In this document: one piece after another, positions 9,187 to 26,282 of the stretch
Numbering within the stretch: position 1 is the stretch's first letter
Layout of the letters: each line of letters starts with the position of its first letter
Source of the DNA: an uncultured Muribaculaceae bacterium
GTDB taxonomy: Bacteria; Bacteroidota; Bacteroidia; Bacteroidales; UBA932
Assembly: GCA_964458425.1 (NCBI GenBank)
Contig: CAYWIW010000001.1
Coordinates: 94,275 to 158,274, forward strand
Direction of reading: 5' to 3'
Length of the DNA: 64,000 bases
Notes under the pieces: generated by a model
The model's database searches: none
Told to the model about the DNA's origin: nothing
The model's input: the letters and a program-made list of their open reading frames with translations, nothing else
Position numbers and translations under genes: made by a program

Positions 9187-10929
9187 ATGTTACGAAAGAT
9201 GTTCATTCTCACGGCACTGCTGATGGCGGCAGTGTCGGTTGCGGGACAGGAGGCAAGGTCTGCCGGTCCCGCCGAAACCCGACGGAAGGACTCCGAGTTT
9301 GTAAGTGACTACCTCACTCCTACACGGATAATTCTTTCAAAGGGCAACGTGACCGGAGCCGAGAAACTCCTGAAGCCGTATCGCGGGCAGGTTTCCACGA
9401 ACGAACCCGAGGTCTGCGTATTCAAAAACGACAAGAGCGGCGTAAGTTCGATTCTGCTGGATTTCGGAAAAGAAATCCAGGGGGGCATACAGATTGTCAG
9501 GGCGATGTCCGGGGACAAGTCCGCGGCACGATTCCGCGTCTGCTTCGGCGAATCCGTAAGCGAGGCGGTGAGCAGCGTTGACGAGAGCGGCACCACGGCC
9601 ACCAACGAGCACTCAGTCAGAGACTTCGAGATTTCCGTCCCTTGGCTGGGAGCCGCCGAGTACGGCAACACCGGATTCCGGTTTGTCCGCCTTGACCTGC
9701 TTGGCGATGACGCAAAAGCATCACTCGTGACCGTAAGGGCCATCTCCCGCTACCGCGACATTCCATACGTAGGACAGTTCAAATGCAGCGATGAAAGGCT
9801 GAACCAAATCTGGAACACAGGAGCTTACACGGTACATCTGAATATGCAGGACTACCTTTGGGACGGAATCAAACGCGACAGGCTCGTGTGGATCGGGGAT
9901 ATGCACCCGGAGGTTATGGCGGTGAACACTGTCTTCGGCGACCACAAGGTCGTGCAGAAGAGCCTCGACTACGTACGCGAGAGCACCCCGGCGACAGTTT
10001 GGATGAATGGAATATGCTCATATTCATTATGGTGGATCATCATTCACCACCATCTGTACGAGTATTACGGAGACCTCGGCTACCTAAGGGAGCAGCACAC
10101 ATATCTGACAGACCTGCTGCACACGGTAATGTCCAACTTCGACGGCTCAAAAGAGAACTTCAGGAGCGGCAGGTTCATAGACTGGCCGACTTCCGAGAAA
10201 CCGGAAGCCATCCACGCCGGACTACAGGCTCTTTCAGTAAGGGCGATGGAAGCCGGAGCGCGGATGGCCCGATGGCTCGATGACAAGAAACTCGAGGAGG
10301 AGTGTTCCGCCGCGGCCGCCAGACTGCGGGAGTACAGACCGCCGGTCACTTCAAGCAAACAGGCCGCCGCCTTGCTTTACCTTGAGGATCTTGCGGACAA
10401 GGAGCAGGCCCGCAAGGTCATCCTGTCCGGCGGAGCAAACGGGTTCTCCTCGTTTATGGGCTATTATATGCTTGAGGCCCTAGCCAAAAGCGGTGATTAT
10501 GACGAGGCTATGAAGATGATTTCCGACTATTGGGGCGCGATGCTCGATCTCGGAGCCACGACATTCTGGGAAGACTTCGACTATTCAAAGGCGGCGGAGG
10601 CCGGAAGAATCGACGAGATTGTGCCGGAAGGCAAATACGACATACACGCTGACGGAGGAGCCTATTGCTATGTCGGACTCCGCCACAGTTTCTGCCACGG
10701 ATGGGCCTCCGGTCCTACTGTATGGCTAAGTTCCCACGTGCTCGGGATCGAACCTGCGGAACCCGGATTCAGGAAAGTGAGAATAAACCCGCATCTCGGC
10801 TCCCTTGAATGGGCGGAGGGTTCCTATCCGACCCCTTACGGCCCGATAACAGTGTCGCACCGCCGCGCCGCGAACGGCACAGTCAAATCAGACATCCGCC
10901 TGCCGAAAGGCGTGAGGCTCGTGAAATAA
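9187..10929 (+). CDS. Alpha-L-rhamnosidase-like glycoside hydrolase (GH78), secreted
   Basis: Signal peptide; ILLDFGKE, GFRFVR, WDGIKRDRLVWIGD, GATTFWE, SFCHGWASGP, LGIEPAEPGF, PTPYGPI. Start taken at MLRKMF (9187). Confidence 0.9.
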   Translation: MLRKMFILTALLMAAVSVAGQEARSAGPAETRRKDSEFVSDYLTPTRIILSKGNVTGAEKLLKPYRGQVSTNEPEVCVFKNDKSGVSSILLDFGKEIQGGIQIVRAMSGDKSAARFRVCFGESVSEAVSSVDESGTTATNEHSVRDFEISVPWLGAAEYGNTGFRFVRLDLLGDDAKASLVTVRAISRYRDIPYVGQFKCSDERLNQIWNTGAYTVHLNMQDYLWDGIKRDRLVWIGDMHPEVMAVNTVFGDHKVVQKSLDYVRESTPATVWMNGICSYSLWWIIIHHHLYEYYGDLGYLREQHTYLTDLLHTVMSNFDGSKENFRSGRFIDWPTSEKPEAIHAGLQALSVRAMEAGARMARWLDDKKLEEECSAAAARLREYRPPVTSSKQAAALLYLEDLADKEQARKVILSGGANGFSSFMGYYMLEALAKSGDYDEAMKMISDYWGAMLDLGATTFWEDFDYSKAAEAGRIDEIVPEGKYDIHADGGAYCYVGLRHSFCHGWASGPTVWLSSHVLGIEPAEPGFRKVRINPHLGSLEWAEGSYPTPYGPITVSHRRAANGTVKSDIRLPKGVRLVK

Positions 10930-10937
10930 CAGCAAAT

Positions 10938-10977
10938 ACGAAGAAAGCCCGGCGGAACCCGTCGGGCTTTCTTTCGT
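10938..10977. terminator. Bidirectional intrinsic terminator between the GH78 gene and tRNA-Leu
   Basis: AAGAAAGCCCGGC-GGAACC-CGTCGGGCTTTCTT inverted repeat with A/T tracts on both sides. Confidence 0.85.
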
Positions 10978-11059
10978 GCGGTAGGTGAGAGTCGAACTCA
11001 CACGGGCTTGCGCCCACTACCCCCTCAAAGTAGCGTGTATACCATTTCACCACTACCGC
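10977..11059 (-). tRNA. tRNA-Leu(GAG)
   Basis: Reverse complement GCGGTAGTGGTGAAATGGTATACACGCTACTTTGAGGGGGTAGTGGGCGCAAGCCCGTGTGAGTTCGACTCTCACCTACCGCA; anticodon loop TT-GAG-GG and long variable arm. Confidence 0.95.
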
Positions 11060-11086
11060 AAGTATGTCTCCCATCGTTTGGGATTG

Positions 11087-11154
11087 CAAAAATAGGTAAT
11101 ATTCCTGAAAAACCAAAATTTTTTCGATGATAAATTAATATTTTGCTATCTTTG
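11087..11154. promoter_or_regulatory. Divergent sigma70 -7 elements for tRNA-Leu (minus) and rpsP (plus)
   Basis: TATTTTTG on minus (11087-11094); TATCTTTG on plus (11147-11154). Confidence 0.7.
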
Positions 11155-11216
11155 CACGTCTTCACGAGTTGGAGACAACAGGTTAATATTTTATAAACAT
11201 TTAAAACAGATTCACA

Positions 11217-11783
11217 ATGGCTGTTAAAATCAGACTTCAGCGCCACGGTAAGAAGAATTTCGCATTCTTCCACATTGTTGTGGCTGATTCACGCGCACCA
11301 CGCGACGGACGTTTCATCGAGCAACTCGGCTCCTACAATCCAAACACCAACCCTGCCACCATCATCCTTGATGGCGAGAAGGCTCTCAAATGGCTCAATG
11401 TCGGCGCGCAGCCTACACTCGTAGCCCGCAGAATCCTCTCTTACGAGGGAGTTCTCCTGAGAAAGCACCTCGAGGGTGGTATCGCCAAGGGAGCGCTCAC
11501 ACAGGAGCAGGCTGACCAGAAATGGAATGCCTGGAAGGCTCAGAGAGACGCGAAGATCGCCGCCAAGAAGGAGGGTCTTGTAAAGGATGCCGCCGACAAG
11601 GCAAAGGTTGCTCTCGAGGCTGAGAAGAAGGTTAACGCGGAAAGGGCAGAGGCTCTTGCCAAGAAGGCAGAGGAGCTTGCCGAGGCTCAGCGCAAGGCCG
11701 CCGAAGAGGCTGCCGCAGCTAAAGCCGCAGAGGAAGCAGCCGCTGCCGCGGAGGCCGCTCCTGAAGCCCCAGCCGAGGCCTAA
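11217..11783 (+). CDS. rpsP: 30S ribosomal protein S16 with Ala/Glu/Lys-rich C-terminal extension
   Basis: MAVKIRLQRHGKK, IVVADSRAPRDGRFIEQLGSYNP. Confidence 0.98.
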   Translation: MAVKIRLQRHGKKNFAFFHIVVADSRAPRDGRFIEQLGSYNPNTNPATIILDGEKALKWLNVGAQPTLVARRILSYEGVLLRKHLEGGIAKGALTQEQADQKWNAWKAQRDAKIAAKKEGLVKDAADKAKVALEAEKKVNAERAEALAKKAEELAEAQRKAAEEAAAAKAAEEAAAAAEAAPEAPAEA

Positions 11784-11787
11784 TCCT

Positions 11788-12312
11788 ATGACCAGGGCAA
11801 AAACAGAGTTTCTGCGTGTTGCCCGGGTACTGAAGTCCAACGGTACCGACGGCGAAATCCTCATCGGATTCCGCGAGATCAGCCCCGAGGACTTGAACCA
11901 GAAGGAACCGGTGTTCATCACATTCGATGGACTGCCGGTTCCGTTTTTCTTTGAATCATTCTCAAAGAAGGGCGTCAGCAGAGCCCTCGTCCACATCACA
12001 GGAGTCAGAAACCTTCGGGACGCTGAAGAGATTGTGGGCAAAGACATATTCGCCAAACCGGATGCGCTCCTTGAATACGAAAGTGACGATGACGGCCTTT
12101 CTGTGGATGACCTTATCGGATGGACGCTTTTGGACGCAAATAATGAAAAGGTCGGCGAAATCACTGACTATGAGGACATTCCTGGAAACACCTGCATCTA
12201 CGTGGAAACGAAAGACGGACAGGCGATGATTCCTCTGCACGAAGACCTCATCCTGTCCGTCGATGAAGATTCCAAATCCATTTCGGTGTCGGTTCCGGAT
12301 GGACTGCTCTGA
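11788..12312 (+). CDS. rimM: 16S rRNA processing protein RimM
   Basis: Follows rpsP; VFITFDGLPVPFF, DLIGWTL, VGEITD, AMIPLHEDLI, VPDGLL. The true ATG is at 11788. Confidence 0.9.
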   Translation: MTRAKTEFLRVARVLKSNGTDGEILIGFREISPEDLNQKEPVFITFDGLPVPFFFESFSKKGVSRALVHITGVRNLRDAEEIVGKDIFAKPDALLEYESDDDGLSVDDLIGWTLLDANNEKVGEITDYEDIPGNTCIYVETKDGQAMIPLHEDLILSVDEDSKSISVSVPDGLL

Positions 12313-12385
12313 GCCACCCGCTCACGACACACATAAACGTCGGTTACTTAAATCCTTAAAAAACTGTTTCCTGACAACCAGTCGC

Positions 12386-13120
12386 TTAGTACTCCACCGA
12401 GATGCTGGCGACAAGGAAATCCAAGCAGAACGACTCCGGTAATGTGCCGCTTGCTGAGGAAACAGCAAACTTCACGGCATCAACATCGCATTTCCGCGCG
12501 TTTTCCATTTCCCAGGCAGTCCAATCCTTGACGATTTTCTTCTCAGTTCCGCTGTAGTCAACCAGATAGTACTCCTCGGTGCAGACAGGGAGAGAACCCT
12601 TGTAGAATGTCGCCGTCACCTTGAGATAGTCTCCGTCCGCAATCAACCCTTTCTCAGCCAAGGTTTCAATATACTTTGTGTTGTTGATGTAGAAGCCAAC
12701 CACGTTGCACGACGATTTCGTAAAATACTCGGAGTACTTGAACACGATGTCGTAATCCTTAGGGGACGAAGTATAGACCGCATAGGCTTGGTTTTTAGAG
12801 AATCCGACAAACTGGCCGGCCGAGGAAAACATCTGCTGCTCCGCAGGCTCCGAGGCGTCGCCCTTCTTCAACGATACCTTCCAGCCGCCGACGAAACCGT
12901 TGTTTAAATCTTCGCAGGAAGTGCATAATGCGGAATAGCTGTCAAGCAGTACATACTCGCGATAAAACAGGCTGTCAACAACAGGGTAATACTGTGGATT
13001 CTCCGCCACATTGTTGAAAGTCGCAGACAATGTATAACTCATTGTGGAAGGCTCGTTCTTACAAGAGACAGCCACCACACAGATTGCCGCAAGGGCAAGA
13101 AGTTTAATTGAGTTTTTCAT
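12386..13120 (-). CDS. DUF4465-like lipoprotein
   Basis: Lipobox VAVSC; GFYINNT, YLKVTATFY, YLVDY..IVKDWTAW, FCLD. Confidence 0.7.
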   Translation of the reverse strand: MKNSIKLLALAAICVVAVSCKNEPSTMSYTLSATFNNVAENPQYYPVVDSLFYREYVLLDSYSALCTSCEDLNNGFVGGWKVSLKKGDASEPAEQQMFSSAGQFVGFSKNQAYAVYTSSPKDYDIVFKYSEYFTKSSCNVVGFYINNTKYIETLAEKGLIADGDYLKVTATFYKGSLPVCTEEYYLVDYSGTEKKIVKDWTAWEMENARKCDVDAVKFAVSSASGTLPESFCLDFLVASISVEY

Positions 13121-13153
13121 ATTAATAACACTAAAATATTAAAGCTGTCAAAG

Positions 13154-13993
13154 TTACAACATAATTTCAACAGTGCCAACAAAATCGGCCGGGCCGGTAA
13201 GCCAAATGTCTCTGACAGACAACCCGGATCCGGCGCATTCGGGGACAAAATCAACCGAAAGCGATGCTATAGCCGCCTTGACCGCACAGGAGACCCTTCC
13301 ATCCGGACATTCCCTTCCGGCCAGACCTTGTGAATATGCGGCCACAGCCGAAGCGACGATTCCGGTACCGCAGGCCAGGGTCTCATCCTCGACACCTTTT
13401 TCAAATGTACGGATGTCAAGTATGACATCGCCATCCTCCGGCACAGGCTCGACGAAATTCACATTGGTCCCGACCGGAGCAAAGCGCCTGTCGCTCCGAA
13501 GAGCGCGGCCTTCTTCAATGACCGGATACCCTCCAAGTCCGCTGACAAATTTGACAAGATGACGGGTGCCGGTGTCGAGAAAGCAGGCATTGTCTTCAGG
13601 AAAGTATTCAATTTCAGACACATCCCTCATTTTCAGACGTATTGTTCTCCCAGTATGTTCCGACGGAAGCATCTCCGCCTGATGAAGGCCGTCGGGGGCC
13701 TCGAAAAAGACCGGATTCCCGCGGCTGACTATTCCGAGATCGGCGGCAAAAGCCACAATGCAGCGTCCTCCGTTGCCGCACATCATCCCGCCGCTGCCAT
13801 CCGGATTGTAGAAAACCATCCTGAAGGCTGACGAATCACTGTTTTCAAGAAGCATCACACCGTCGGCTCCAAAGCCGGTATGGCGAGCGCACAGATGACG
13901 GACCCGCTCCGGTGTCAGGGTCACGGCACCGGAACGGTTGTCGGCCAGCAGAAAATCATTGCCGGCTCCGTGGTATTTATAGAATTTGTACAT
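13154..13993 (-). CDS. dapF: Diaminopimelate epimerase
   Basis: KYHGAGNDF, GFGADG, MCGNGGRC, DTGTRH, TNVNF, RTFEKGVEDETLACGTG (both catalytic Cys present). Confidence 0.97.
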   Translation of the reverse strand: MYKFYKYHGAGNDFLLADNRSGAVTLTPERVRHLCARHTGFGADGVMLLENSDSSAFRMVFYNPDGSGGMMCGNGGRCIVAFAADLGIVSRGNPVFFEAPDGLHQAEMLPSEHTGRTIRLKMRDVSEIEYFPEDNACFLDTGTRHLVKFVSGLGGYPVIEEGRALRSDRRFAPVGTNVNFVEPVPEDGDVILDIRTFEKGVEDETLACGTGIVASAVAAYSQGLAGRECPDGRVSCAVKAAIASLSVDFVPECAGSGLSVRDIWLTGPADFVGTVEIML

Positions 13994-14002
13994 AACGGAT
14001 TC

Positions 14003-14764
14003 TTACCGGAGCAAGGTTTCCAACTCGACGGAGGCATCGGTCCTGCCGTCACGGTATTTGACTATGACCGGTGTGTAAAGATGAATCCCGGCATCCTTGC
14101 CGAAACCGGAAGCCATCGGACGGCTGCCCGCTACCACGACCGCACCCGGAGGCACGACAGTCTGCCCGGAAGCGCTGCGAGGGACATACTCTCCGGATGT
14201 GGAGTCATAGAGAGCCGTCCCTTTTGTCAGGATCACTCCGGAAGCCAGCACAGCTCCTTCTCCCACAATCGTACCCTCGTATATTCCGCAATTACCACCG
14301 ATGAAAGCATTGTCCTCGACAATCACCGGCAAGGCTCCGGCAGGCTCAAGCACACCGCCGATCTGGGCAGCGGCGGAGATGTGGACATTCTTTCCCACCT
14401 GAGCGCAGGAACCGACAAGAGCGTGGGAGTCGATCATCGTTCCCTCATCCACATACGCCCCGATGTTGACATAGGACGGCGGCATCATAATGACAGAAGG
14501 TGCAAGATAGGAGCCGCAACGAACGCTGCTCCCGCCCGGAACGATACGTACCCTGTCCTCCGGTGAGAACCTATGGAGCGGAAGAGTGTCCTTGTCGAAA
14601 AATGAGTATCCCCCCTCACTCAAATCCTTGAGCTTCCCGACACGGAAACCCTCCAGAATCGCCTCCTTGACCCACGCATTTACCGTCCAGACTCCGTCAA
14701 TCTTCTCGGCCACACGGACTTCGCCGGATTCAAGCCGGCTGCAAAGCATCTGAAAGTCCATCAT
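14003..14764 (-). CDS. dapD: 2,3,4,5-tetrahydropyridine-2,6-dicarboxylate N-succinyltransferase
   Basis: [48 protein letters not shown] hexapeptide repeats. Confidence 0.93.
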
Positions 14765-15630
14765 ACCCCAAGCCCCTCCATAGCTTTTCTCATAGCCTCG
14801 AAAGTAGAAGGGACAGCCTCAGTGAGAGGCAGGCGCATCCCGGCTGCGCAGAGGCCAAGGATGTCAAGCCCGGCCTTCACAGGAATCGGATTGCTTTCCA
14901 CAAAGCAACCGCGGAACAAAGGGTCAAGACGGTCGTTGAGTTTTGCCGCCGTCTCCAGATCCCCGTCAGCCAAGGCACCGACCAGTCTCACCATCAATTC
15001 AGGCGCGATGTTGGAAGCCACGCTGATCACTCCGTCTCCGCCACGCTCCATAATCTGCAATGTCTGGTCATCGTTGCCGCTCAGCACACTGAAGCCCTCC
15101 GGTTTCCCGGAGAGTATCCTGCCAATCTGCTCCAGATTGCCGGAAGCCTCCTTGACGGCGATCACATTCGGAATCTCAGCCAGGCGAAGAGCCGTCTCCG
15201 CAGACATATTCACACCTGTCCTGCCCGGCACATTGTAGGCCACGATGCCTTTGCCGGTGGCGGCCGCGACAGTCCTGAAATATTCAACGATTCCCTCCTG
15301 TGTCGGCTTGTTGTAGTAAGGCACAACAATCAGGAAGGCATCCGGCCCGCAAGCCTCCAGAAGACGGATGTTGCGTATCGTGGCCGCCGGAGAGTTAGTC
15401 CCCGCACCGGCAACCACCGGCCTGTCAGGGCAAAGCTCCCTTGTCATCCGGAGAAGCGCAAGCTTCTCATCGTCGTCCAGACACGGAGTCTCAGCCGTGG
15501 TCCCAAGCGGAACCAGAAAATGCACACCGGCCTCAACCTGTCTTATTACCAGCGCCCTGTACGCATCATAATCGACCTTCCCGTCCTTGAACGGAGTCAC
15601 AAGCGCCGTTCCGCAGCCCTGTAGTATCAT
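14761..15630 (-). CDS. dapA: 4-hydroxy-tetrahydrodipicolinate synthase
   Basis: [38 protein letters not shown]. Confidence 0.97.
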
Positions 15631-16307
15631 ATTCCTTCCTCCTTAAAAAACAGTTCCTTGAATTCGTGGACACCTTGCAGGTTCTCGGTCATAAGCGCCG
15701 CCACGACCGCCCCCTCGGCAAAACCTTTTCTGGAAAAAGCCTCGTGTTCCACGGTGATCCTGTCATTCTCTCCCTCAAAACCGACCGTATGGATTCCGGC
15801 CACCTCACCGACCCTGACGGAAGCCACATCCGGACTTGCGTCCATATTCTCCGCAACCACGGAAGCCAACGACTTCGCGGTTCCGCTCGGAGCGTCCAAT
15901 TTATGAATATGATGCTTCTCGACAATGTACGGGGAATAACCTCCCGCCTTGCCCAGATATTTGGCTATCAATCCGACAGCCGCCGAAAGCACATTCACTC
16001 CCACTGAGTAGTTGGACGAGTGGATCATCGGAGTACCCTGCCTGTTGAAACAGTCCGTCACCTCATCCTTGATGTCGTTCCAGCCGGTCGTACCTATCAC
16101 CGCGGCCTTGAAGTTCTCTGCGATGAACCTGTAATTGCTACGGAAAGCCTCAGGTGTCGTAAAGTCAATGCAGACACATTCCCTGGCAAGAGTCCTGTCA
16201 AACGACGAGATGTCCTCGCTGCATCCGGCGCACTCGATCCCACGGCTTTCCAGCACCTGCTCCACGTTATGCCCCATACGGCCATAGCCGCTTATAACCA
16301 CTTTCAT
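15627..16307 (-). CDS. dapB: 4-hydroxy-tetrahydrodipicolinate reductase
   Basis: GYGRMG, IDFTTP, IGTTGW, SNYSVG, EKHHIHKLDAPSGTA, HEAFSRKGFAEGA. Confidence 0.96.
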   Translation of the reverse strand: MKVVISGYGRMGHNVEQVLESRGIECAGCSEDISSFDRTLARECVCIDFTTPEAFRSNYRFIAENFKAAVIGTTGWNDIKDEVTDCFNRQGTPMIHSSNYSVGVNVLSAAVGLIAKYLGKAGGYSPYIVEKHHIHKLDAPSGTAKSLASVVAENMDASPDVASVRVGEVAGIHTVGFEGENDRITVEHEAFSRKGFAEGAVVAALMTENLQGVHEFKELFFKEEGI

Positions 16308-16312
16308 ATCAA

Positions 16313-17662
16313 TTAATTGAAAATAAAGCTATGTAATCCCTCAAGCGTCACTCCGAGCCTGTCTCCGTCAATGACAAAGCTCTCGCTCATCATATTGGCG
16401 CCCACGTCGGCGAGATAAACCCTGCCGGCAAGCCCTATGACCTTGTCACCAAGCCCATCCAGGCCATAGATGTTCCTGCCGACCACGGAGATGAAAGCCT
16501 TGTCCCTGAAAACAGTGACATCGGCCCATTTCCTGATCTCCTCCACAGCCTCGACAAAGCCGGTAGATTCCTCCGGCACAACCAGTGCGACCTCGGATTC
16601 TGAGGCTTTCGTCAGGACTGTAGGTATTCTCCTCGGATAGAATGACGAAAAGACCTTTCCGAGCATCCTCGTAACACCTTCGATCTTTGAGGAAGATATC
16701 TTCACGAACAGAATCTCGTCCCTCACCGCAATGGATTTGGGCCCGTCCGGAGACTTGTCACCTCTGACAACCCGCGTCCCCTCGCAATCAGGATTCGTCG
16801 AATTCAGGACAAGCACCGGAATATTCCTTTTCCTCGCCGGTTCTATGGTGAGAGGATGCAGCACTCTGGCGCCCATCGCAGCCATCTCCGCGGCCTCCTC
16901 ATAGGAAATCGCATCAATTTTTCTGGTGTCGGAGACAATCCTCGGATCAGCCGTCCTGACACCATCGACATCCGTCCAGATCTCTATTCTCTGCGCGCCG
17001 AGAGCCATTCCGAAAATGGCGGCGGAATAGTCGGAACCCTCAAAACCAAGGACTGACGGCGCTCCGGACTCGGTGGAAGCGATGAAACCCTGGGTCAGGA
17101 CTATGTCCACACCTTTACACTCTGCCCCCACTATTCTCTTGACATTCGCCTCGGTGACATCCAAGTCAGGCCTGGCGTTAAGATAGTTGTCATCGGTGAT
17201 GACCATTCTTCTGGCGTCAATCCACTGGCAGGATATTCCGTTTGCGTTGAACGCGTAGCCTATGATGGTCGATGAGAGCAGCTCACCCGTGGAGATGACC
17301 CTCGCCTTGCTGCGCGGGGACAGCTCACCGATCAGGCACACGCCTCCGACAAATGTCTCAAGCCCCTTGATGAGGTTCTCCACACTCTCCAACGCATTCT
17401 CAAGCAGTTTTGGATTGCCCTGAAGAAGTTGCCCGGCCATCTCGAAATGCCTCTGACGAAGCTGAGACAGAAGCCCGCGCACATTATCCTCGTGCTGCGC
17501 CTCCGCCTCGGCGGCAATGGAGCAAAGCAGCTTGGTCACTTTTGACAACGCCGAGACCACAACCAGCGGTTTGTCCCGCAAACGGCCTCTGACAATGGAA
17601 ATCACCCTTCCGACAGCGTCTGCGTCCTGAACGGACGTACCGCCGAATTTCATTACGATCAT
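16313..17662 (-). CDS. lysC: Aspartate kinase
   Basis: VMKFGGTSV, VVVSA, GELLSS, QGFIAS, GSDYSAA, IWTDVDG, GARVLHP, C-terminal ACT-like region. Confidence 0.95.
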   Translation of the reverse strand: MIVMKFGGTSVQDADAVGRVISIVRGRLRDKPLVVVSALSKVTKLLCSIAAEAEAQHEDNVRGLLSQLRQRHFEMAGQLLQGNPKLLENALESVENLIKGLETFVGGVCLIGELSPRSKARVISTGELLSSTIIGYAFNANGISCQWIDARRMVITDDNYLNARPDLDVTEANVKRIVGAECKGVDIVLTQGFIASTESGAPSVLGFEGSDYSAAIFGMALGAQRIEIWTDVDGVRTADPRIVSDTRKIDAISYEEAAEMAAMGARVLHPLTIEPARKRNIPVLVLNSTNPDCEGTRVVRGDKSPDGPKSIAVRDEILFVKISSSKIEGVTRMLGKVFSSFYPRRIPTVLTKASESEVALVVPEESTGFVEAVEEIRKWADVTVFRDKAFISVVGRNIYGLDGLGDKVIGLAGRVYLADVGANMMSESFVIDGDRLGVTLEGLHSFIFN

Positions 17663-17668
17663 CGCTTG

Positions 17669-18730
17669 TTATTTGTTAAGTCCATTAATAGTTCTAAATA
17701 TTCTCACATACTGGCCCACAGCCTTTTCCAGCTGCGAAAGCAGGACATACTCATTGTCCGTGTGGGCGGTGAGTATCGAGCCGGGGCCGCATATCGCCTT
17801 CATCGGGAACCCGTTCAGCCTCGGAGCGTCGCTGCCGAATGACACAGCCTTCGTCTCTATCCCCCCGACACTATGGAAATACTCCAGCGGGGAATCCCCT
17901 CCGTAAGCCGTGACGGAGATGTCGTGAGGCAACACCTCCGAAAGGACACCGTCTATCAGGCCGTCCGTGGCGAACGTAGTCCGGAAGTAGAGCCTGAACC
18001 TGACCTCAGGACTTAGGATGTTCTGTGGGTTGCCGCTCTCCAGCCTACCGATGTTCCAGGTGGTTTCCCCAAGTATGGGGTCTTCAGGAAACTCAACCGC
18101 TTTCAATGCGTTACAGAATTCCACGAACCTGTCCACAGCACTTATCCCCTGATGCGGGTAGCCGGAATGGCACGCTTTCCCGGGAATGGAGATTCCGAAA
18201 GCCTTGGTACCCTTGCTCGCGGTCACAAGGCAATTGTCGGTCGGCTCCCCCACCAGTACGAACTTTCCTCCCGGACGGGTCAGCGAATATGCCTTCGCCC
18301 CGAACGAGCCGGTCTCTTCACCGGAAAGCAGGAGCAGCCCGAAGTCACGGAATCCGTCCTCGTAAAGCCTTTCGCAGGCGGAGTGCATCGCGGCTATCTG
18401 TCCCTTGGCGTCACAGCTGCCTCTTCCTCTCACAATGGTGTCATCGCACACGGCTGTCACTCCGTCCGGCAGTATGTCACCGGCGCGGACCTCCGCGAAC
18501 TCCGGAGGAATGTAGGGCGGAACCGTGTCCAGATGCGTGCAGAAAACGGATGAAGGGCAACCGGTGCCGGACCAGTCAAACAGAAGGTTCAGCGTGCCGT
18601 CCCCTACCTCATCCGACTGTACCGCGCAATCTCCGAACGGCAGACGCTCCCTGAGGAACTCGGCCAAAGGCCTTTCCTCACCCGATGTCGAAGGCATCGA
18701 CAATATTTCCCGGAACATCCTAAGGTTCAT
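17669..18730 (-). CDS. M20A family metallohydrolase (ArgE/DapE-like), probable acyl-diaminopimelate deacylase
   Basis: HLDTVPP, GRGSCDAKG, GEETG, GEPT, HSGYP, AHTDNE. First gene of the dap operon. Confidence 0.8.
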   Translation of the reverse strand: MNLRMFREILSMPSTSGEERPLAEFLRERLPFGDCAVQSDEVGDGTLNLLFDWSGTGCPSSVFCTHLDTVPPYIPPEFAEVRAGDILPDGVTAVCDDTIVRGRGSCDAKGQIAAMHSACERLYEDGFRDFGLLLLSGEETGSFGAKAYSLTRPGGKFVLVGEPTDNCLVTASKGTKAFGISIPGKACHSGYPHQGISAVDRFVEFCNALKAVEFPEDPILGETTWNIGRLESGNPQNILSPEVRFRLYFRTTFATDGLIDGVLSEVLPHDISVTAYGGDSPLEYFHSVGGIETKAVSFGSDAPRLNGFPMKAICGPGSILTAHTDNEYVLLSQLEKAVGQYVRIFRTINGLNK

Positions 18731-18747
18731 ACACTACACCGTTTTGC

Positions 18748-18755
18748 CAAATATA
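18748..18755 (-). promoter_or_regulatory. -7 element of the dap operon promoter
   Basis: TATATTTG on the minus strand just upstream of 18730. Confidence 0.6.
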
Positions 18756-18860
18756 GTAATTCCTACGTATTTGGTCAAGACAAAAACGAGAAAACGCCTT
18801 GACAACCCGAACGTTTTCCGAATCATCAGGCGCTTTGCAAGCATTCAGACGAACAGCTTC

Positions 18861-20213
18861 CTATGCCTGATCCGGACGGTCAAGCCCCATCTGAGGGTTC
18901 TTACGGGAATAGACATTGATGGCCAGTGCAAGGGCAAGAGCCACGACACAGACCGCCAGAAACATCAGCTCGACACGAACGGCCCCGGTCTCGCTCACCC
19001 CTTTGGCAAGATTGGCAGACGCAAGTATCTTCCCGGCGAACATCTTGAAAGACATAAGTCCAAGATTCTGAACCCAGTAGATTAAAGAATAGGCCGTACC
19101 GAGCACCTTGTCCGGGACAATCTTCGGCACCGATGGCCACATCGCGGCCGGCACCAGCGAATAGCCGAAGCCAAGGAAAACCATCGCCAGATAACCGTAG
19201 AACGGGATTCCTGACGGAGCGAACGCAAGCATAAGATGCGCCGTCAAGGCCAGAGCCGCCCCGACAAGCATCCAACGCGTCCCGTGGCCGACCTTGTCAA
19301 CCAACACGCCGAAAACCGGAGCGAACACGACCGTGGCGAAAGGCAGCATCGAAACCATCCAGCTCGCGGACTCGACAGGAACGTCGAAGCGAGGGATAAG
19401 AATCGCCGACGCGAACTTCTTGAACGATATGACGCTGCTGTAAAAGAACACGCAGAGCAAAGCAAGGGCGATGAACCGCTTGTTTTTCAGCAGTTCCAGC
19501 ACATCCGAAAAGCGGAATTTGTCTTCCTCGGCGGTATCTGTCGAGTCTTTCAGCCCGGCCTGACGGTCGAACCTTGCGTCCATCGCCACGAAAACCGCCC
19601 AGAGAAGCATCCCCGCCAGCATCAGGGCACCCCCAAGGAAAGCCGGTCTCGCAGTCTCTGCCAATGAATATGTCTGGGCGACCTCCTTGGCGGCCACAAG
19701 TTTCGGGGATATGACCAGAGCGAAGGCCGTTCCAAGCCTGGCGATAGCCAGCTGGAGTCCCATCGCGAAAGCCATATTCCCTTCCTTGAACCACTTTGCA
19801 ATCGACCTTGTTACGGCCACGCCGGCAATCTCGCTTCCAAGTCCGAAGAACATACATCCGACGTAAGCAACTGACAAAGAAGTCTTTGGCGGCAGACCGG
19901 AAACCAGTGCATAAGTGACCAAGGCAGCACCTGAGGCCATCATCGTGACAAAGATGGAGCCTGTGACCCGCACTCCCCACCTGTCCAGAAGCATTCCGCA
20001 GACCACAAGGCCTCCGAACACGCACAGCACCGAGTAGCCGCTGGCATAGAGACCATAGTCAGCCGAGTTCCATCCAAGCTGGAGCGCGGACGGGTTCTCG
20101 AACAGGTGGGACAGTGTTGAGAACATATCGTCAAAGTAGTACGATGCGAACATCGGTACCACCAGACAAGCCAGAGCGATCCAGCAGGAATATTTCCTGA
20201 AATCCTTAGTCAC
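18861..20213 (-). CDS. MFS transporter (paralogue of the adjacent gene)
   Basis: About 12 TM segments; GMLLDRWG, AKWFK..MAFAMGLQLAIARLG, SLVPAAMWPSVPKIVP. Confidence 0.9.
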   Translation of the reverse strand: MTKDFRKYSCWIALACLVVPMFASYYFDDMFSTLSHLFENPSALQLGWNSADYGLYASGYSVLCVFGGLVVCGMLLDRWGVRVTGSIFVTMMASGAALVTYALVSGLPPKTSLSVAYVGCMFFGLGSEIAGVAVTRSIAKWFKEGNMAFAMGLQLAIARLGTAFALVISPKLVAAKEVAQTYSLAETARPAFLGGALMLAGMLLWAVFVAMDARFDRQAGLKDSTDTAEEDKFRFSDVLELLKNKRFIALALLCVFFYSSVISFKKFASAILIPRFDVPVESASWMVSMLPFATVVFAPVFGVLVDKVGHGTRWMLVGAALALTAHLMLAFAPSGIPFYGYLAMVFLGFGYSLVPAAMWPSVPKIVPDKVLGTAYSLIYWVQNLGLMSFKMFAGKILASANLAKGVSETGAVRVELMFLAVCVVALALALAINVYSRKNPQMGLDRPDQA

Positions 20214-20248
20214 GGTAAAGCGATGTGTTCTTCAGCCGGAGATCCGGA

Positions 20249-21673
20249 TTATTTCTGGATGTTCGGGAGTTCAAGGCCAAGGTGGCGCTTGCCGTCCAGA
20301 ACCTTGAGATAGAGTGCTATAAGGAGGGCGGCCACACCGAATCCCGCGAAAATCACAAGCGGAACGGTGTAATTGTAAGGGATGAACTCCGCACCAGCCG
20401 CCTTTGCGGCGATGACAGCGGGATTGTCCGCGTTCACGCTCGTCAGTACGCTTCCAATCAGCTTCGGGACAAAGCACAGGCCGATGTTCTGGACCCAGAA
20501 GATAAGGCAGTACGCCGAACCGAGAATCTTCTCGTCAATAATCTTAGGGACGGATGGCCAAAGAGCGGCCGGAACAAGCGAGAAGCTGACTCCCAGAACC
20601 ACGATCGTCGCGAGCGCGATGAACTTGCTGTGAGTGGCAGGAAGCACGAAAGCGAAGATCAAATGGCAGACAATCAGAAGCAGAGCGCCCCAGATGAGCA
20701 TAGTCGCGCCCTTTCCCTTAGTGTCAAGGAACCGTCCGAGGAACGGTGTGATGACGGCGGCTCCGATCGGGAACCATCTGAATATGTCGGAGGCGGTTCT
20801 GGCCGAGATTCCGTCAAGGTTGCACTGAAGCATATTCGCTCCGTACCTCTGGAACGGGAATATCGCGGAATAATAAAGCACGCACAGAAGCGCCACAACC
20901 CAGAAACTCCTGGAAGAGAAAATCTTGCCGAGGTCGCTGAGCTTGAACTCGTCATCGGAGGAAGGCTCTTCGGACTTGATTCCGGCCTCCACAAGCTGCC
21001 CGTCGAATTTCCTGTCCATTACACTGAACACGATGAAGTTGATCAGACCGATGAGGAGAAGCACGGTGCAGAAGCCGACCGGGCCCTGCACTCCACCGAG
21101 TTTGGAAGCGAGGATAGGGCTTATCGAGAACACGGAGAACACTCCCACGCGGGCAATCGCCATCTCGATTCCCATAGCCATAGCCATCTCCTTGCCTTTG
21201 AACCATTTGGCTATCGCTTTGGAGACTGTCGTTCCGGCCATTTCGCAGCCGCAGCCGAAAATCATAAATCCGAGAGCGGCCATCTTGGCGCTTCCCGGCA
21301 TAGCCACCCACCAGGTTCCCAGCCACTCGCAGAAAGCCGTGGTCTGGAACCAATCGGTTATTCCTATATATTTAATGGTGGCTCCGATGAACATCATCGA
21401 TGCGGAGAGGACTCCAGTGAAACGGACTCCCATCTTGTCGAGGATGATACCGGCGAGAATAAGGAAGCCGCAGACATTAAGGATATACTCGGCGCTGGCG
21501 TAAGTGCCGAACACATCCGGACTCCAGCCCCTCTGCTGCTCGATGAGGGACTGCAACGGTGACATCACATCGACAAACATATAGCCGAAGAACATCATCA
21601 GCGCAATGAGAATGAGTGCGGTCCACCTTGCGACCGGCGAATCATTCATCAGTTTTTGGATTTTTTCTGCCAT
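20249..21673 (-). CDS. MFS transporter (paralogue of the adjacent gene)
   Basis: GIILDKMG, AKWFKGKEMAMAMGIEMAIARVG, SLVPAALWPSVPKII. Confidence 0.9.
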   Translation of the reverse strand: MAEKIQKLMNDSPVARWTALILIALMMFFGYMFVDVMSPLQSLIEQQRGWSPDVFGTYASAEYILNVCGFLILAGIILDKMGVRFTGVLSASMMFIGATIKYIGITDWFQTTAFCEWLGTWWVAMPGSAKMAALGFMIFGCGCEMAGTTVSKAIAKWFKGKEMAMAMGIEMAIARVGVFSVFSISPILASKLGGVQGPVGFCTVLLLIGLINFIVFSVMDRKFDGQLVEAGIKSEEPSSDDEFKLSDLGKIFSSRSFWVVALLCVLYYSAIFPFQRYGANMLQCNLDGISARTASDIFRWFPIGAAVITPFLGRFLDTKGKGATMLIWGALLLIVCHLIFAFVLPATHSKFIALATIVVLGVSFSLVPAALWPSVPKIIDEKILGSAYCLIFWVQNIGLCFVPKLIGSVLTSVNADNPAVIAAKAAGAEFIPYNYTVPLVIFAGFGVAALLIALYLKVLDGKRHLGLELPNIQK

Positions 21674-21774
21674 TTTGACTATTTCTTTTAAAAATATTCG
21701 GAACGAACGTAAAATTATTCAAACAATCTGCGAATATAAGAAAAATGTCGGAATAAAGTCGTACCTTAGCCTTT

Positions 21775-23649
21775 ATGATTCTCGACAATGTCAATTTTCC
21801 TGAAGACCTCAGGAAGCTTAAAATAGAGGAATTACAGCCGCTCTGCGACGAGATCCGGGACTATATTGTCAGATGCTGCGCCGACAATCCGGGACATCTG
21901 GCCTCCAGCCTGGGCGCCGTGGAACTGATAGTAGGCCTGCATTATGTGTTCGACACCCCGAAAGACAAACTGGTCTTCGATGTGGGGCATCAGGCTTATG
22001 CCCACAAGATTCTGACGGGACGGAAGGAAGGTTTCAAGAAAAACAGGATGGCTGACGGAATCAGCGGATTCCCGAACCGGGACGAAAGCGAATACGACGC
22101 ATTCGGGGCCGGACACGCCTCCACATCCATATCCGCCGCCCTCGGAATGTCCGAAGCCGCCAAAATCTCCGGCTCCGGTGAGAGAATCGTGGCGATGATC
22201 GGCGACGGCGCGATGACCGGCGGCCTGGCTCTCGAAGGCCTGAACAATGCCGGATGGGAGGACACAGACCTGCTTGTCGTGCTGAACGACAACGAGATGG
22301 CGATTGACGGGAACAAGGGTGCCCTGCACTCCTATCTGCTCAAACTGACGACAGACCCTGCCTACAACCGCATCAAGACCCACATCTGGAACAAGCTCGG
22401 GGCGGGCAGGTTCCGCAACCGCATCCAGCAGTTCGTGCGCAAGGCTAAGTCCGGACTGGTCACAACGTCAGGGGGAGACTTGTTCGAGGCTTTCGGATTC
22501 AGATACTTCGGCCCCATCGACGGGAATGACATCATAAAGGTTGTCAACACATTGCGGCGCGTCAAGGAAATCAAGGGGCCAAAAATCCTGCACACCTGTA
22601 CCATAAAGGGCAAAGGCTATGCGCCGGCAGAGTCAGACCCCACCACCTGGCACGCTCCGGGAACATTCAACGCCGAGACAGGAGAAAGACCAGTCAGGAA
22701 ACATTCCGCCGACCGCTACCAGGACGTGTTCGGAGAGGTTCTGTGCGAAATGGCCGAAAAAGACCGGAAAGTCGTCGGAATCACTCCGGCGATGGCCACC
22801 GGAAGCGGGATGAGCGATTTCGCCGCTCGCTTCCCGGACAGATTCTTCGATGTCGGCATAGCGGAAGAGCACGCCGCAACTTTCGCCGCGGGACTCGCCG
22901 CCGGGGGGATGAAGCCTTTCTGCGCCATCTACTCCTCGTTCGCCCAAAGAGCCTACGATGAAATCATACACGACATCGCACTCCAAAGGCTTAACGTGGT
23001 GATCTGCCTCGACAGAGCCGGGCTTGTGGGCGAGGACGGAGCCACCCACCAAGGCGCTTTCGACCTTGCCTCGCTGCGCTGCATCCCGAACACCGTCATC
23101 GCCGCGCCGAAAGACGAGATCCAGCTCAAAAGGCTACTCTACACAGGGCTTGGCGTCAAAGAAGGCCCGTTCGTCATCCGATACCAGAGAGGCTTGGGAG
23201 AAGGGACCGACTGGAGACGGGCCGAACCGGAACCAGCGGAGATCGGCAAAGGCGAGAAACTGGCTGACGGAGAGAATGTCGCCGTCCTGGCATTGGGCCC
23301 CGTGGCGAACCGCGCGGTCGAAGCGGCGGAAAGGCTGAGGAAAGAGACAGGGACCGGACCGGCCATATTCAACGCCATATTCCTTAAGCCGTTTGACACC
23401 GGCATTCTCGAGGAAGCGTCAGGCTTCGGGCAGATTGTCACCTTGGAGGAAGGCAGCCTGAAGGGAGGCCTGTTCAGCGAGGTAAGCGAATATGTCGCCT
23501 CAAGGGGGCTAGACATCACCGTGACCGGAATAGGACTGCCCGACAGATTTATCCATCAGGCGACAGTAGGACAGCAAAGAAAGGACTGCGGACTTGACAC
23601 AGACAGGATATATTCGGAGCTTAAACGACTTTTCGATAAAAATAATTGA
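21775..23649 (+). CDS. dxs: 1-deoxy-D-xylulose-5-phosphate synthase
   Basis: GHLASSLGAVEL, FDVGHQAY.HK, GHASTSIS, GDGAMTGG, LNDN, FDVGIAEEH, DRAGLVGEDGATH. Confidence 0.98.
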   Translation: MILDNVNFPEDLRKLKIEELQPLCDEIRDYIVRCCADNPGHLASSLGAVELIVGLHYVFDTPKDKLVFDVGHQAYAHKILTGRKEGFKKNRMADGISGFPNRDESEYDAFGAGHASTSISAALGMSEAAKISGSGERIVAMIGDGAMTGGLALEGLNNAGWEDTDLLVVLNDNEMAIDGNKGALHSYLLKLTTDPAYNRIKTHIWNKLGAGRFRNRIQQFVRKAKSGLVTTSGGDLFEAFGFRYFGPIDGNDIIKVVNTLRRVKEIKGPKILHTCTIKGKGYAPAESDPTTWHAPGTFNAETGERPVRKHSADRYQDVFGEVLCEMAEKDRKVVGITPAMATGSGMSDFAARFPDRFFDVGIAEEHAATFAAGLAAGGMKPFCAIYSSFAQRAYDEIIHDIALQRLNVVICLDRAGLVGEDGATHQGAFDLASLRCIPNTVIAAPKDEIQLKRLLYTGLGVKEGPFVIRYQRGLGEGTDWRRAEPEPAEIGKGEKLADGENVAVLALGPVANRAVEAAERLRKETGTGPAIFNAIFLKPFDTGILEEASGFGQIVTLEEGSLKGGLFSEVSEYVASRGLDITVTGIGLPDRFIHQATVGQQRKDCGLDTDRIYSELKRLFDKNN

Positions 23650-23655
23650 AAAAGT

Positions 23656-23686
23656 TTTGGATAATCCAAATAAATACCTATCTTTG
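23656..23686 (+). promoter_or_regulatory. sigma70 promoter of the tRNA-tuf operon
   Basis: TTTG (23656-23659), 19-nt spacer, TATCTTTG (23679-23686). Confidence 0.85.
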
Positions 23687-23723
23687 CAATCCCTTTGTGA
23701 AAGGGAACATTCATTGAAATATC

Positions 23724-23797
23724 GCCGATGTAGCTCAGTTGGCCAGAGCACGTGATTTGTAATCTCGGGGTCGTGGGTTCGACTCCCTCCATCGGCT
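23724..23797 (+). tRNA. tRNA-Thr(TGT)
   Basis: GCCGATGTAGCTCAG...TT-TGT-AA...GGTTCGACTCC...ATCGGCT cloverleaf. Confidence 0.96.
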
Positions 23798-23829
23798 CAA
23801 AGTCTCTGAAGCATATTCGGAGTAAACTT

Positions 23830-23909
23830 GGGAGGATCGCATAGCGGCAATTGCGGCGGACTGTAAATCCGCTCCTTCGGGTTCGGTGGTTCGAGTCCAC
23901 CTCCTCCCA
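23830..23909 (+). tRNA. tRNA-Tyr(GTA)
   Basis: GGGAGGA/TCCTCCC acceptor stem, CT-GTA-AA loop, variable arm, GTTCGAGTC. Confidence 0.96.
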
Positions 23910-23917
23910 CAACATTC

Positions 23918-23990
23918 GCGGAAGTAGCTCAGTTGGTAGAGCATCAGCCTTCCAAGCTGAGGGTCGCGAGTTCGAACCTCGTCTTCCGCT
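23918..23990 (+). tRNA. tRNA-Gly(TCC)
   Basis: GCGGAAG/CTTCCGC stem, CT-TCC-AA loop; followed by encoded CCA. Confidence 0.96.
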
Positions 23991-24002
23991 CCAATCAAAA
24001 AA

Positions 24003-24074
<72 letters not shown>

Positions 24075-24115
24075 CAAACTGCATTATTTAGTTTACTCAT
24101 TTAAAACATAATATT

Positions 24116-25309
24116 ATGGCAAAAGAAACTTTCCAAAGAACGAAGCCGCACGTAAACAACGGTACAATTGGCCACGTTGACCACGGTAAGACCACTTTGA
24201 CTGCCGCTATTACCAAGGTTCTCGCCGAGAGAGTCTCAGGTAACTCCGACAAGGTAAAGTCCTTCGATCAGATTGACAATGCCCCCGAGGAGAAGGAGCG
24301 TGGTATCACCATCAACTCAGCGCACGTTGAGTACGAGACCGAGAACCGCCACTATGCTCACGTTGACTGCCCGGGCCACGCTGACTACGTTAAGAACATG
24401 GTTACCGGTGCCGCCCAGATGGATGGAGCCATCCTCGTTGTAGCATCTACCGACGGTCCTATGCCTCAGACCCGTGAGCACATCCTGCTCGCCCGTCAGG
24501 TGAACGTTCCAAGAATCCTCGTCTTTATGAACAAGGTTGACCTTGTTGACGACGCAGAGATGCTTGACCTCGTAGAGATGGAGATCCGTGACCTCCTCGG
24601 ATTCTACAAGTTCGATGAGAACTGCCCTATCATCCGCGGTTCCGCTCTTGGAGCTCTCAACGGAGAGAAGGAATGGGAAGACAAGGTAATGGAGCTTATG
24701 AGCGCTGTTGACGAGTACATCCCTCAGCCTGTTCGCCAGAACGAGAAGCCGTTCCTTATGCCTATCGAGGACATCTTCTCAATCACCGGCCGCGGTACCG
24801 TAGTTACCGGCCGTATCGAGACTGGTACCATCCACGTCAACGATCCTGTTGAGCTTGTAGGTTTCGGCGATGCTCCTAAGAACACTGTGGTTACCGGTGT
24901 CGAGATGTTCCGCAAGCTTCTTGACCAGGGTGAGGCCGGAGACAATGTAGGTCTTCTCCTCCGCGGTATCGACAAGAAGGAAGTCAAGAGAGGTGAGGTT
25001 GTAGCCAAGCCAGGTTCAATCACTCCTCACAAGCACTTCAAGGCTCAGATTTACGTCCTCAAGAAGGAAGAGGGTGGACGTCACACTCCATTCCACAACC
25101 ACTATCGTCCTCAGTTCTTCATCCGTACACTGGATGTTACCGGTGAGATCACTCTTCCGGAAGGAGTTGAGATGGTTATGCCTGGCGATAACGTTGAGAT
25201 CGACGTTCAGCTCATCACCCCTGTAGCCCTCAACGAAGGACTCCAGTTCGCTATCCGCGAAGGTGGACGTACCGTTGGAGCCGGCCAGGTTATCAAGATC
25301 GAAGAATAA
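24116..25309 (+). CDS. tuf: Elongation factor Tu
   Basis: [36 protein letters not shown]. Confidence 0.99.
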
Positions 25310-25321
25310 TTCTTCACAATA

Positions 25322-25353
25322 CAGGACGGATGTCCGGAAAGATGTCCGTCCTG
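25322..25353 (+). terminator. Hairpin between tuf and tRNA-Trp (terminator or processing stem)
   Basis: CAGGACGGA...TCCGTCCTG 9-bp inverted repeat with a weak U tract. Confidence 0.5.
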
Positions 25354-25358
25354 ATTAT

Positions 25359-25429
25359 AGGGGAATAGAACAAGGGTAGTTCAGCGGTCTCCAAAACCGT
25401 CGATGTGGGTTCGAATCCTGCTTCCCCTG
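25359..25429 (+). tRNA. tRNA-Trp(CCA)
   Basis: AGGGGAA/TTCCCCT stem, CT-CCA-AA loop, GGTTCGAATCC; encoded CCA follows. Confidence 0.95.
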
Positions 25430-25514
25430 CCAAAAATATCAAAGGTTACGATTTGGTAATTGTTTAACAGACATCGTAGAAGCTTCCAAATTACGAGGTC
25501 CATTAAATGCAAAG

Positions 25515-25703
25515 ATGAGAAAGTTCATTAACTATTGCAAAGAGTCATACGCAGAACTCACAAAGAAGGTCACTTGGCCTACCTGGGAGAAGCTTCAAAG
25601 CTCCGCCCTTTTGGTTATGGTCGCCACAGTGATCCTCGCTTTGGTACTCTTCGTGGTTGACTTCGCTTTCGAGCATCTGATGACAGCGATATACACATTG
25701 TAA
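25515..25703 (+). CDS. secE: Preprotein translocase subunit SecE
   Basis: ELTKKVTWPT motif plus one TM segment; lies between tRNA-Trp and nusG. Confidence 0.95.
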   Translation: MRKFINYCKESYAELTKKVTWPTWEKLQSSALLVMVATVILALVLFVVDFAFEHLMTAIYTL

Positions 25704-25709
25704 TTATCA

Positions 25710-26282
25710 TTGATTACCATGGCTGATATGAAATGGTATGTCCTTAGGACAGCGGGAAGCAAGGAGAAGAAGGCCAAAGAATATCTTGAGAAAGAAATAG
25801 AAAGGTTTGGCCTGCAGGATCAAGTCGCACAGGTACTTGTTCCGGTGAAGCGTGAGATCGTCACCAAGAACGGCAAGAGAAAGGTGGTTGAAAGACTGCT
25901 TTATCCCGGCTATGTCTTGATACAGGCTCAGCTTTGCCCGGAACTTGAGTATATTATCCGCAACGATATTCCTGGAATGTCCGGGTTCCTGACTGAGAAG
26001 AGGACTTCCGGTTCCCTTACAGAAAGGGTGCCTGTCCCGATCAGAGATGAGGAGGCGCAGCTTATTCTTGGTAATCAGGATCAGAACGTGGATAACGCGG
26101 CAGAGACAGAGGTTAACTTCGAGGTCGGTGAGTCAGTCAAGATTACTGACGGGCCGTTCAGCGGATTTAACGGAACTGTCGATGCAATCGAGGAGGACAG
26201 AAGCAAACTCAAGGTGATAGTTGTGATTTTCGGCAGGAAGACCCTGCTGGAGCTCAGCTTTACTCAAGTAACAAAAGAATAA
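25710..26282 (+). CDS. nusG: Transcription termination/antitermination factor NusG
   Basis: KWYVLRT, YPGYVLI, KOW motif VKITDGPFSGFNG, IFGRKT. The start may be 25719. Confidence 0.97.
   Translation: MITMADMKWYVLRTAGSKEKKAKEYLEKEIERFGLQDQVAQVLVPVKREIVTKNGKRKVVERLLYPGYVLIQAQLCPELEYIIRNDIPGMSGFLTEKRTSGSLTERVPVPIRDEEAQLILGNQDQNVDNAAETEVNFEVGESVKITDGPFSGFNGTVDAIEEDRSKLKVIVVIFGRKTLLELSFTQVTKE

Follow-up and report, generated by a model that had tools for sequence, protein, structure and literature searches.

The classical succinylase route to diaminopimelate (DAP), as in Escherichia coli and other Proteobacteria, is encoded by dapD, argD/dapC, dapE and dapF. GapMind 2026 (PMC13759103) treats this N-succinyl route as common in Bacteroidota, and in other members of that phylum an alternative M20D desuccinylase of the Echvi_1427 type has been described (GapMind 2026, PMC13759103). 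Bacteroides and related gut genera use the DapL and Ddh routes instead. Here we describe an operon of six genes, M20, lysC, dapB, dapA, dapD and dapF, within a stretch of 64,000 nucleotides (the window) on contig 1 of the assembly of an uncultured Muribaculaceae bacterium of the order Bacteroidales. The operon is very probably a single transcription unit for nearly the whole succinylase route from aspartate to meso-DAP, from which the aminotransferase gene has been lost and for which an unlinked enzyme probably substitutes.

Compared with the classical route, the proposed chemistry is the same and the DapD proteins of both fall in one equivalog family (NF008808). As in that route, the deacylase is an M20A enzyme of the ArgE/DapE family and no dedicated aminotransferase gene is linked. 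Unlike the classical arrangement, the genes here, including lysC, stand in one operon, and the M20 protein is too diverged to reach the DapE equivalog cut-offs. The Echvi_1427-type system is similar in that it comes from the same phylum, depends on DapD and has a canonical DapE that standard models do not recognise, but it relies on an M20D enzyme, whereas the operon described here carries an M20A gene. The DapL/Ddh routes share order and habitat with our locus, and an AK-dapB-dapA cluster (AK, aspartokinase) is common to it and to one genome of the DapL/Ddh type. The six open reading frames occupy the minus strand from 18730 down to 13154 and, in the order of transcription, are preceded by a candidate promoter element:

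18748-18755, minus strand: Bacteroidetes-type -7 promoter box TATATTTG, a pattern match 17 nucleotides before the M20 ATG (18730), with a predicted promoter function
17669-18730, minus strand: M20A metallo-deacylase of the ArgE/DapE family, 353 amino acids, matching Pfam Peptidase_M20 and M20_dimer; putative DapE
16313-17662, minus strand: aspartokinase lysC, 449 amino acids (TIGR00657, 294.8 bits against a cut-off of 208.7)
15627-16307, minus strand: dapB, 4-hydroxy-tetrahydrodipicolinate reductase, a short form of 226 amino acids (TIGR00036, 133.2 against 122; Pfam DapB_N and DapB_C)
14761-15630, minus strand: dapA, 4-hydroxy-tetrahydrodipicolinate synthase, 289 amino acids (TIGR00674, 284.5 against 206.15)
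14003-14764, minus strand: dapD, tetrahydrodipicolinate N-succinyltransferase, 253 amino acids, of a non-mainstream lineage (NF008808, 299.6 against 204)
13154-13993, minus strand: dapF, diaminopimelate epimerase, 279 amino acids, starting 9 nucleotides past dapD (TIGR00652, 173.7 against 114.65)

The gaps between successive genes are 6, 5, -4, -4 and 9 nucleotides, and from this spacing we infer that the six genes are co-transcribed as one unit. The leader is only about 10-17 nucleotides long. A TAnnTTTG box is conserved 24-38 nucleotides 5′ of the M20 ATG in near relatives too. By itself the -7 motif is not over-represented: the window has 25 matches, where 19.5 would be expected. The initial annotation had proposed a compact six-gene operon with its own -7 box, and the spacing of the reading frames, the family matches and the box upstream all bear this out. 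A scan for sigma-70 promoters and terminators was set aside as uninformative in this phylum. Lys/dap operons elsewhere may be controlled by the lysine riboswitch (Rfam RF00168); the operon differs from these, since an Rfam scan of positions 10000-26000 (E<=1) found neither a lysine riboswitch nor any other cis-regulatory element at it. That scan returned five tRNAs and one chance match, and only the tRNAs, all of them outside the operon, reached the gathering score.

Beyond the family scores, DapB carries a GYGRMG dinucleotide-binding motif and DapF keeps both catalytic cysteine motifs, CGNG and ACGTG. The acyl donor of DapD is probably succinyl-CoA, judging from its resemblance to succinyl-type enzymes: the solved succinyltransferases in the Protein Data Bank (PDB), among them the DapD enzymes of E. 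coli, Burkholderia and Mycobacterium, match it at E-51 to E-59, compared with E-19 to E-23 for acetyltransferases, and on the acetyl-type model TIGR03532 it scores 100.9 bits against a cut-off of 231.75. All six genes are under purifying selection, with ratios of nonsynonymous to synonymous substitution rates (dN/dS) of 0.05-0.21 relative to the closest related locus, L029; the values are 0.086 for dapD and 0.126 for M20. This is an ordinary, intact and functional-looking biosynthetic operon of a known route, and its unusual trait is the loss of an aminotransferase gene that its relatives keep.

The remaining genes of the pathway were sought in the whole assembly (2.56 Mb in 48 contigs, 94% complete). 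The five genes lysC, dapB, dapA, dapD and dapF are single-copy in the genome, and the only paralogue of the operon M20 is a weak one (22% identity) in an arginine biosynthesis cluster. The window holds no aminotransferase, and asd, lysA and dapC/argD are missing from it, as first noted; asd lies on contig 28 and lysA on contig 32, each above its cut-off. Neither of the alternative routes was found in the genome: for DapL, the best scores are 94.6 bits on TIGR03542 (cut-off 364.7) and 352.4 on TIGR03540 (cut-off 593.25), and for Ddh (TIGR01921) there is no match at all. The view of this locus as a succinylase-type operon without an aminotransferase holds. The suggestion that the pathway supplies DAP for peptidoglycan rather than lysine does not, because lysA is present and the pathway therefore yields lysine as well as meso-DAP. 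The operon aspartokinase is the genome's only one, being both the sole TIGR00657 match over the cut-off and the sole tblastn match, and no homoserine dehydrogenase was found in the genome. It therefore appears to be dedicated to DAP and lysine, which would explain why lysC sits in the operon. With one aspartokinase and no homoserine dehydrogenase found, synthesis of threonine and methionine from aspartate is probably impossible for this organism.

In the proposed pathway, aspartate would be phosphorylated by the operon aspartokinase and converted to the semialdehyde by the product of the unlinked asd gene, after which DapA and DapB would form tetrahydrodipicolinate. DapD would then succinylate this intermediate, and an unlinked aminotransferase, best the ArgD-like enzyme of the arginine cluster and second a class I enzyme encoded on contig 18, would produce N-succinyl-LL-DAP. 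The operon M20, acting as DapE, would remove the succinate, and DapF would epimerise the product to meso-DAP, destined for peptidoglycan and, by way of the unlinked LysA, for lysine.

The evidence that an aminotransferase has been lost comes from related loci. In 33 of them, an aminotransferase gene of about 395 codons sits directly after dapD and before dapF, and in the family sample described below it adjoins dapD in 7 of the 11 genomes that have DapD. The encoded aminotransferase belongs to class I and to the LysN/KAT-II type: the PDB structures 2egy (Thermus LysN), 3aov (Pyrococcus PH0207) and 1wst (Thermococcus) match it at E-70 to E-102. The substrates of such enzymes are long dicarboxylic 2-oxo acids, which a succinyl-DAP aminotransferase would also have to accept, and the position of the gene in the operon suggests a DapC role. 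Its NCBIfam matches are to the aminotransferase domains of MocR-like regulators, it matches none of the three curated DapC families (TIGR03537, TIGR03538 and TIGR03539), and in public annotation it is called a 'PLP-dependent aminotransferase family protein' (PLP, pyridoxal phosphate). A paralogue 46-52% identical to it is widespread in the family, and neither the orthologue nor this paralogue was found in the window's genome. On the DapD tree, the loci nearest to the window that have no aminotransferase group together, with good support, in a subclade nested among lineages with the gene, and for this reason its absence is most simply read as a loss, that is, a derived state. The ancestral operon would then have carried the LysN/KAT-II-type gene between dapD and dapF. 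Since dapD and M20 are still under purifying selection in the subclade, another aminotransferase must serve the step.

To place the operon among its relatives, 301 genomes drawn evenly from 148 Bacteroidales families were scored with curated cut-offs. DapD is over its cut-off in 216 of them and DapL in 63, and the two sets are nearly complementary. The succinylase operon had been called atypical for Bacteroidales, which these counts do not support, and neither does the conservation of the gene order M20-AK-dapB-dapA-dapD in about 60 of the 80 top-ranking related loci, from species-level gut and rumen metagenome-assembled genomes (MAGs). The accompanying statement about Bacteroides itself was sound: the control genome of Bacteroides thetaiotaomicron has DapL and Ddh and is without DapD. 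The nearest DapD loci come from uncultured gut and rumen Bacteroidales MAGs labelled Alistipes sp. CAG:514, UMGS648, Candidatus Cryptobacteroides, Candidatus Merdivivens, 'Muribaculaceae', and RUG, RGIG and UBA bins; NCBI places Cryptobacteroides in Bacteroidales incertae sedis. The operon is a lineage trait of an uncultured gut and rumen clade of Bacteroidales, probably a Cryptobacteroides/UBA932-like family.

Of the 61 genomes that sample the window's family, 11 have DapD, 7 have DapL and 6 have Ddh, DapD never together with either of the other two, and only 27 have DapA. Even congeners differ, genome G006 having DapL and Ddh and genome G269 having DapD. The G006 cluster consists of AK, dapB and dapA (47, 66 and 60% identical to the window's proteins) and is without M20 and dapD, so that the module that varies comprises M20 and dapD, joined by the aminotransferase and dapF in genomes that have them there. 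Two further groups stand out in this sample. The 34 genomes without DapA include the closed or nearly closed G306, G344, G332, G322 and G349, which suggests widespread auxotrophy for DAP and lysine. Seven others (G303, G320, G328, G335, G347, G354 and G357) have DapA and none of DapD, DapL and Ddh, and so resemble a variant described from Alistipes as 'no amination pathway' (PMC9026213).

Whether the family acquired or retained the module, the two readings offered by the initial annotation, is an evenly balanced question. It may be that dapD, M20 and dapF reached the family laterally as a ready-made operon and then descended vertically with many losses. The window's DapD is 53-66% identical to the DapD of genomes labelled Chlorobiaceae and Ignavibacteriales, from other classes of the phylum, and only 40-54% identical to mainstream Bacteroidales DapD, whose gene stands alone, with no dapA, dapB or dapF within 1.5 kb on either side. 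In the order sample, the window's type of DapD was found only in the window's family, where its distribution is patchy (10 of 60 genomes), even among congeners. Moreover, a genome from another order of the same class (G484, locus L147, G484:C7:195000-213000) has the full M20-AK-dapB-dapA-dapD-aminotransferase operon, and in the DapD tree it pairs as sister, with support of 100/99, with G152, a member of the window's family. This pairing suggests that the operon has passed from one order to another, and at least one such transfer is likely. The DapD trees, both quick and careful, show two deeply split types and recover the operon-linked one as a strongly supported clade, but they were computed without an outgroup. 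The mainstream clade has a very long branch (about 5.8 changes per site), and the point at which it attaches is not settled. In an approximately unbiased (AU) test, a topology uniting all Bacteroidales DapD in one clade was not rejected (p 0.835), and the claim that the tree proves a foreign origin was therefore withdrawn. The identities of the G006 aspartokinase, DapB and DapA are also comparable to that of Dxs (64%), which fits vertical descent of the operon core.

The operon M20 is a putative N-succinyl-LL-DAP desuccinylase (DapE). Its metal-binding and catalytic motifs are all kept, namely HLDTV (66), GRGSCDAKG (102), GEETG (137), GEPT (161), GKACHSGYP (184) and AHTDNE (322), and at every locus where M20 is linked with lysC and dapD it heads the operon. 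It scores, however, under every DapE and ArgE equivalog cut-off of NCBIfam, reaching on the DapE models 74 bits against 304.2 (TIGR01900) and 45.2 against 361.8 (TIGR01246); the assignment of its substrate therefore rests on context, that is, on linkage within the operon. These low scores leave room for the idea that it is some other deacylase or peptidase, and that desuccinylation falls to the second M20A, which sits in an argG-argC-argD-...-argB-M20 cluster on contig 7, or to an enzyme that was not recognised. The nearest solved structure to the operon M20 is an acetylcitrulline deacetylase (2f7v), and ArgE/DapE models give the arginine-cluster M20 somewhat better scores (TIGR01910, 133.9 bits). 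We nevertheless regard this as unlikely, since the operon M20 is strictly linked with lysC, dapB, dapA and dapD over about 60 loci and again in another order, and is missing where dapD is missing (G006). Nor does the genome offer an alternative DapE of the M20D type: the only matches to TIGR01891 are the two M20A genes themselves, and these are weak (30.1 and 26.3 bits, cut-off 153.75).

The aminotransferase step would fall to an unlinked enzyme, probably an ArgD-like or a class I aminotransferase. The initial annotation had offered an unlinked or a novel transaminase; a novel enzyme is not needed, as the gene of the relatives' operon has been lost and unlinked candidates are present in the genome. 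The ArgD-like enzyme, from the arginine cluster on contig 7, is the genome's only class III aminotransferase and scores 361 bits on TIGR00707 against a cut-off of 410. The ArgD of E. coli doubles as DapC. Because of this precedent, and because of the succinylated intermediates in arginine synthesis in Bacteroidetes, we favour the ArgD-like enzyme as the best candidate and place the class I enzyme of contig 18 second. Arginine synthesis in Bacteroidetes has been reported to run via such intermediates, and DapC to be optional in pathway variant P2 (PMC9026213). DapC is often left unassigned in the literature, where ArgD-type enzymes are an accepted solution for this reaction.

Besides the low scores of the operon M20, several observations weigh against this reconstruction. 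The assembly is incomplete, which makes absences provisional. No aminotransferase anywhere in the genome is over any DapC cut-off, the best being the contig-18 enzyme with 172.3 bits on TIGR03537 against 453.6. The ArgD-like type occurs in 58 of the 61 family genomes and is so nearly universal as to be uninformative, while the contig-18 type occurs in 16, including genomes without DapA, and does not track the operon. Both candidates are present in all five tested relatives that have no operon aminotransferase, and so these relatives do not discriminate between them. The contig-18 enzyme was rejected as a dedicated DapC because its distribution does not follow that of DapD. It is also very unlikely that this enzyme, as a DapL2/DapC_direct-like aminotransferase, makes LL-DAP directly from tetrahydrodipicolinate and leaves dapD and M20 redundant or otherwise used: its best NCBIfam matches are indeed LL-diaminopimelate aminotransferase models (NF006756, 357.8 bits; TIGR03540, as given above) and it is present in those same five relatives, but both scores are far below the cut-offs of 507 and 593, the type also occurs in G344 and G306, which are without DapA, and in G006, which has a true DapL, and dapD and M20 are under purifying selection in the subclade.

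The survey of these two candidates also turned up some irregular genes. Homologues of the contig-18 enzyme with one or two in-frame stops occur at G152:C5:160950-162107, G346:C6:18683-19837, G323:C2:132837-133991, G319:C2:5913-7073 and G652:C89:3181-4395, and may be decaying genes. Class III aminotransferase domains lie inside frames of about 740-800 amino acids at G315:C6:3270-4424, G316:C39:7388-8569, G342:C23:23136-24317 and G343:C14:1387-2565; these are probably fusion proteins, and in our sample they occur only in these four DapD-type genomes, unlinked to the dap operon.

On either side of the operon lie genes that were not assigned to it. Directly upstream are two tandem transporters of the major facilitator superfamily (MFS) on the minus strand (18861-20213 and 20249-21673), about 36% identical to each other; most near relatives have the one nearer the operon at the same place, and a few (L038, L039 and L042) have it inverted. 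On the other side, a lipoprotein of 244 amino acids (12386-13120, minus strand), with a signal peptide ending in VAVSC, comes after dapF in most related loci (27-82% identity) and matches no Pfam or NCBIfam family. Given this lack of a family match and a TAACTTTG box of its own at 13149-13156, it was not counted as an operon member. The lipoprotein was not found in G006, G269, G152 and G344, and an empty-site analysis that used it as an anchor failed for this reason.

What stands out at this locus is a diverged M20A candidate for DapE, a lineage-specific loss of the aminotransferase, a patchy distribution that excludes DapL and Ddh, and a family with many members that apparently lack the pathway. 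More tentatively, we suggest that the LysN/KAT-II-type enzyme of the relatives represents an undescribed family of N-succinyl-LL-DAP aminotransferases, and that the operon is a self-contained cassette for DAP and lysine prototrophy. Members of this gut and rumen family, in which more than half of the sampled species have no DapA, would acquire it, lose it or exchange it for DapL/Ddh. The cassette would continue to work after the loss, with a general aminotransferase, ArgD-like or class I, taking over. For the order, these results mean that most Bacteroidales, as sampled, rely on the succinylase route, and that DapL and Ddh are the solution only of the well-studied gut genera. For the family, a poorly annotated operon of abundant uncultured gut and rumen bacteria gains an annotation, including a DapE candidate that automatic pipelines leave unnamed, and its relatives point to a candidate DapC family that can be tested. 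The mutually exclusive, patchy pattern and the relatives without DapA also bear on the cross-feeding of amino acids and cell-wall precursors that is predicted for the gut.

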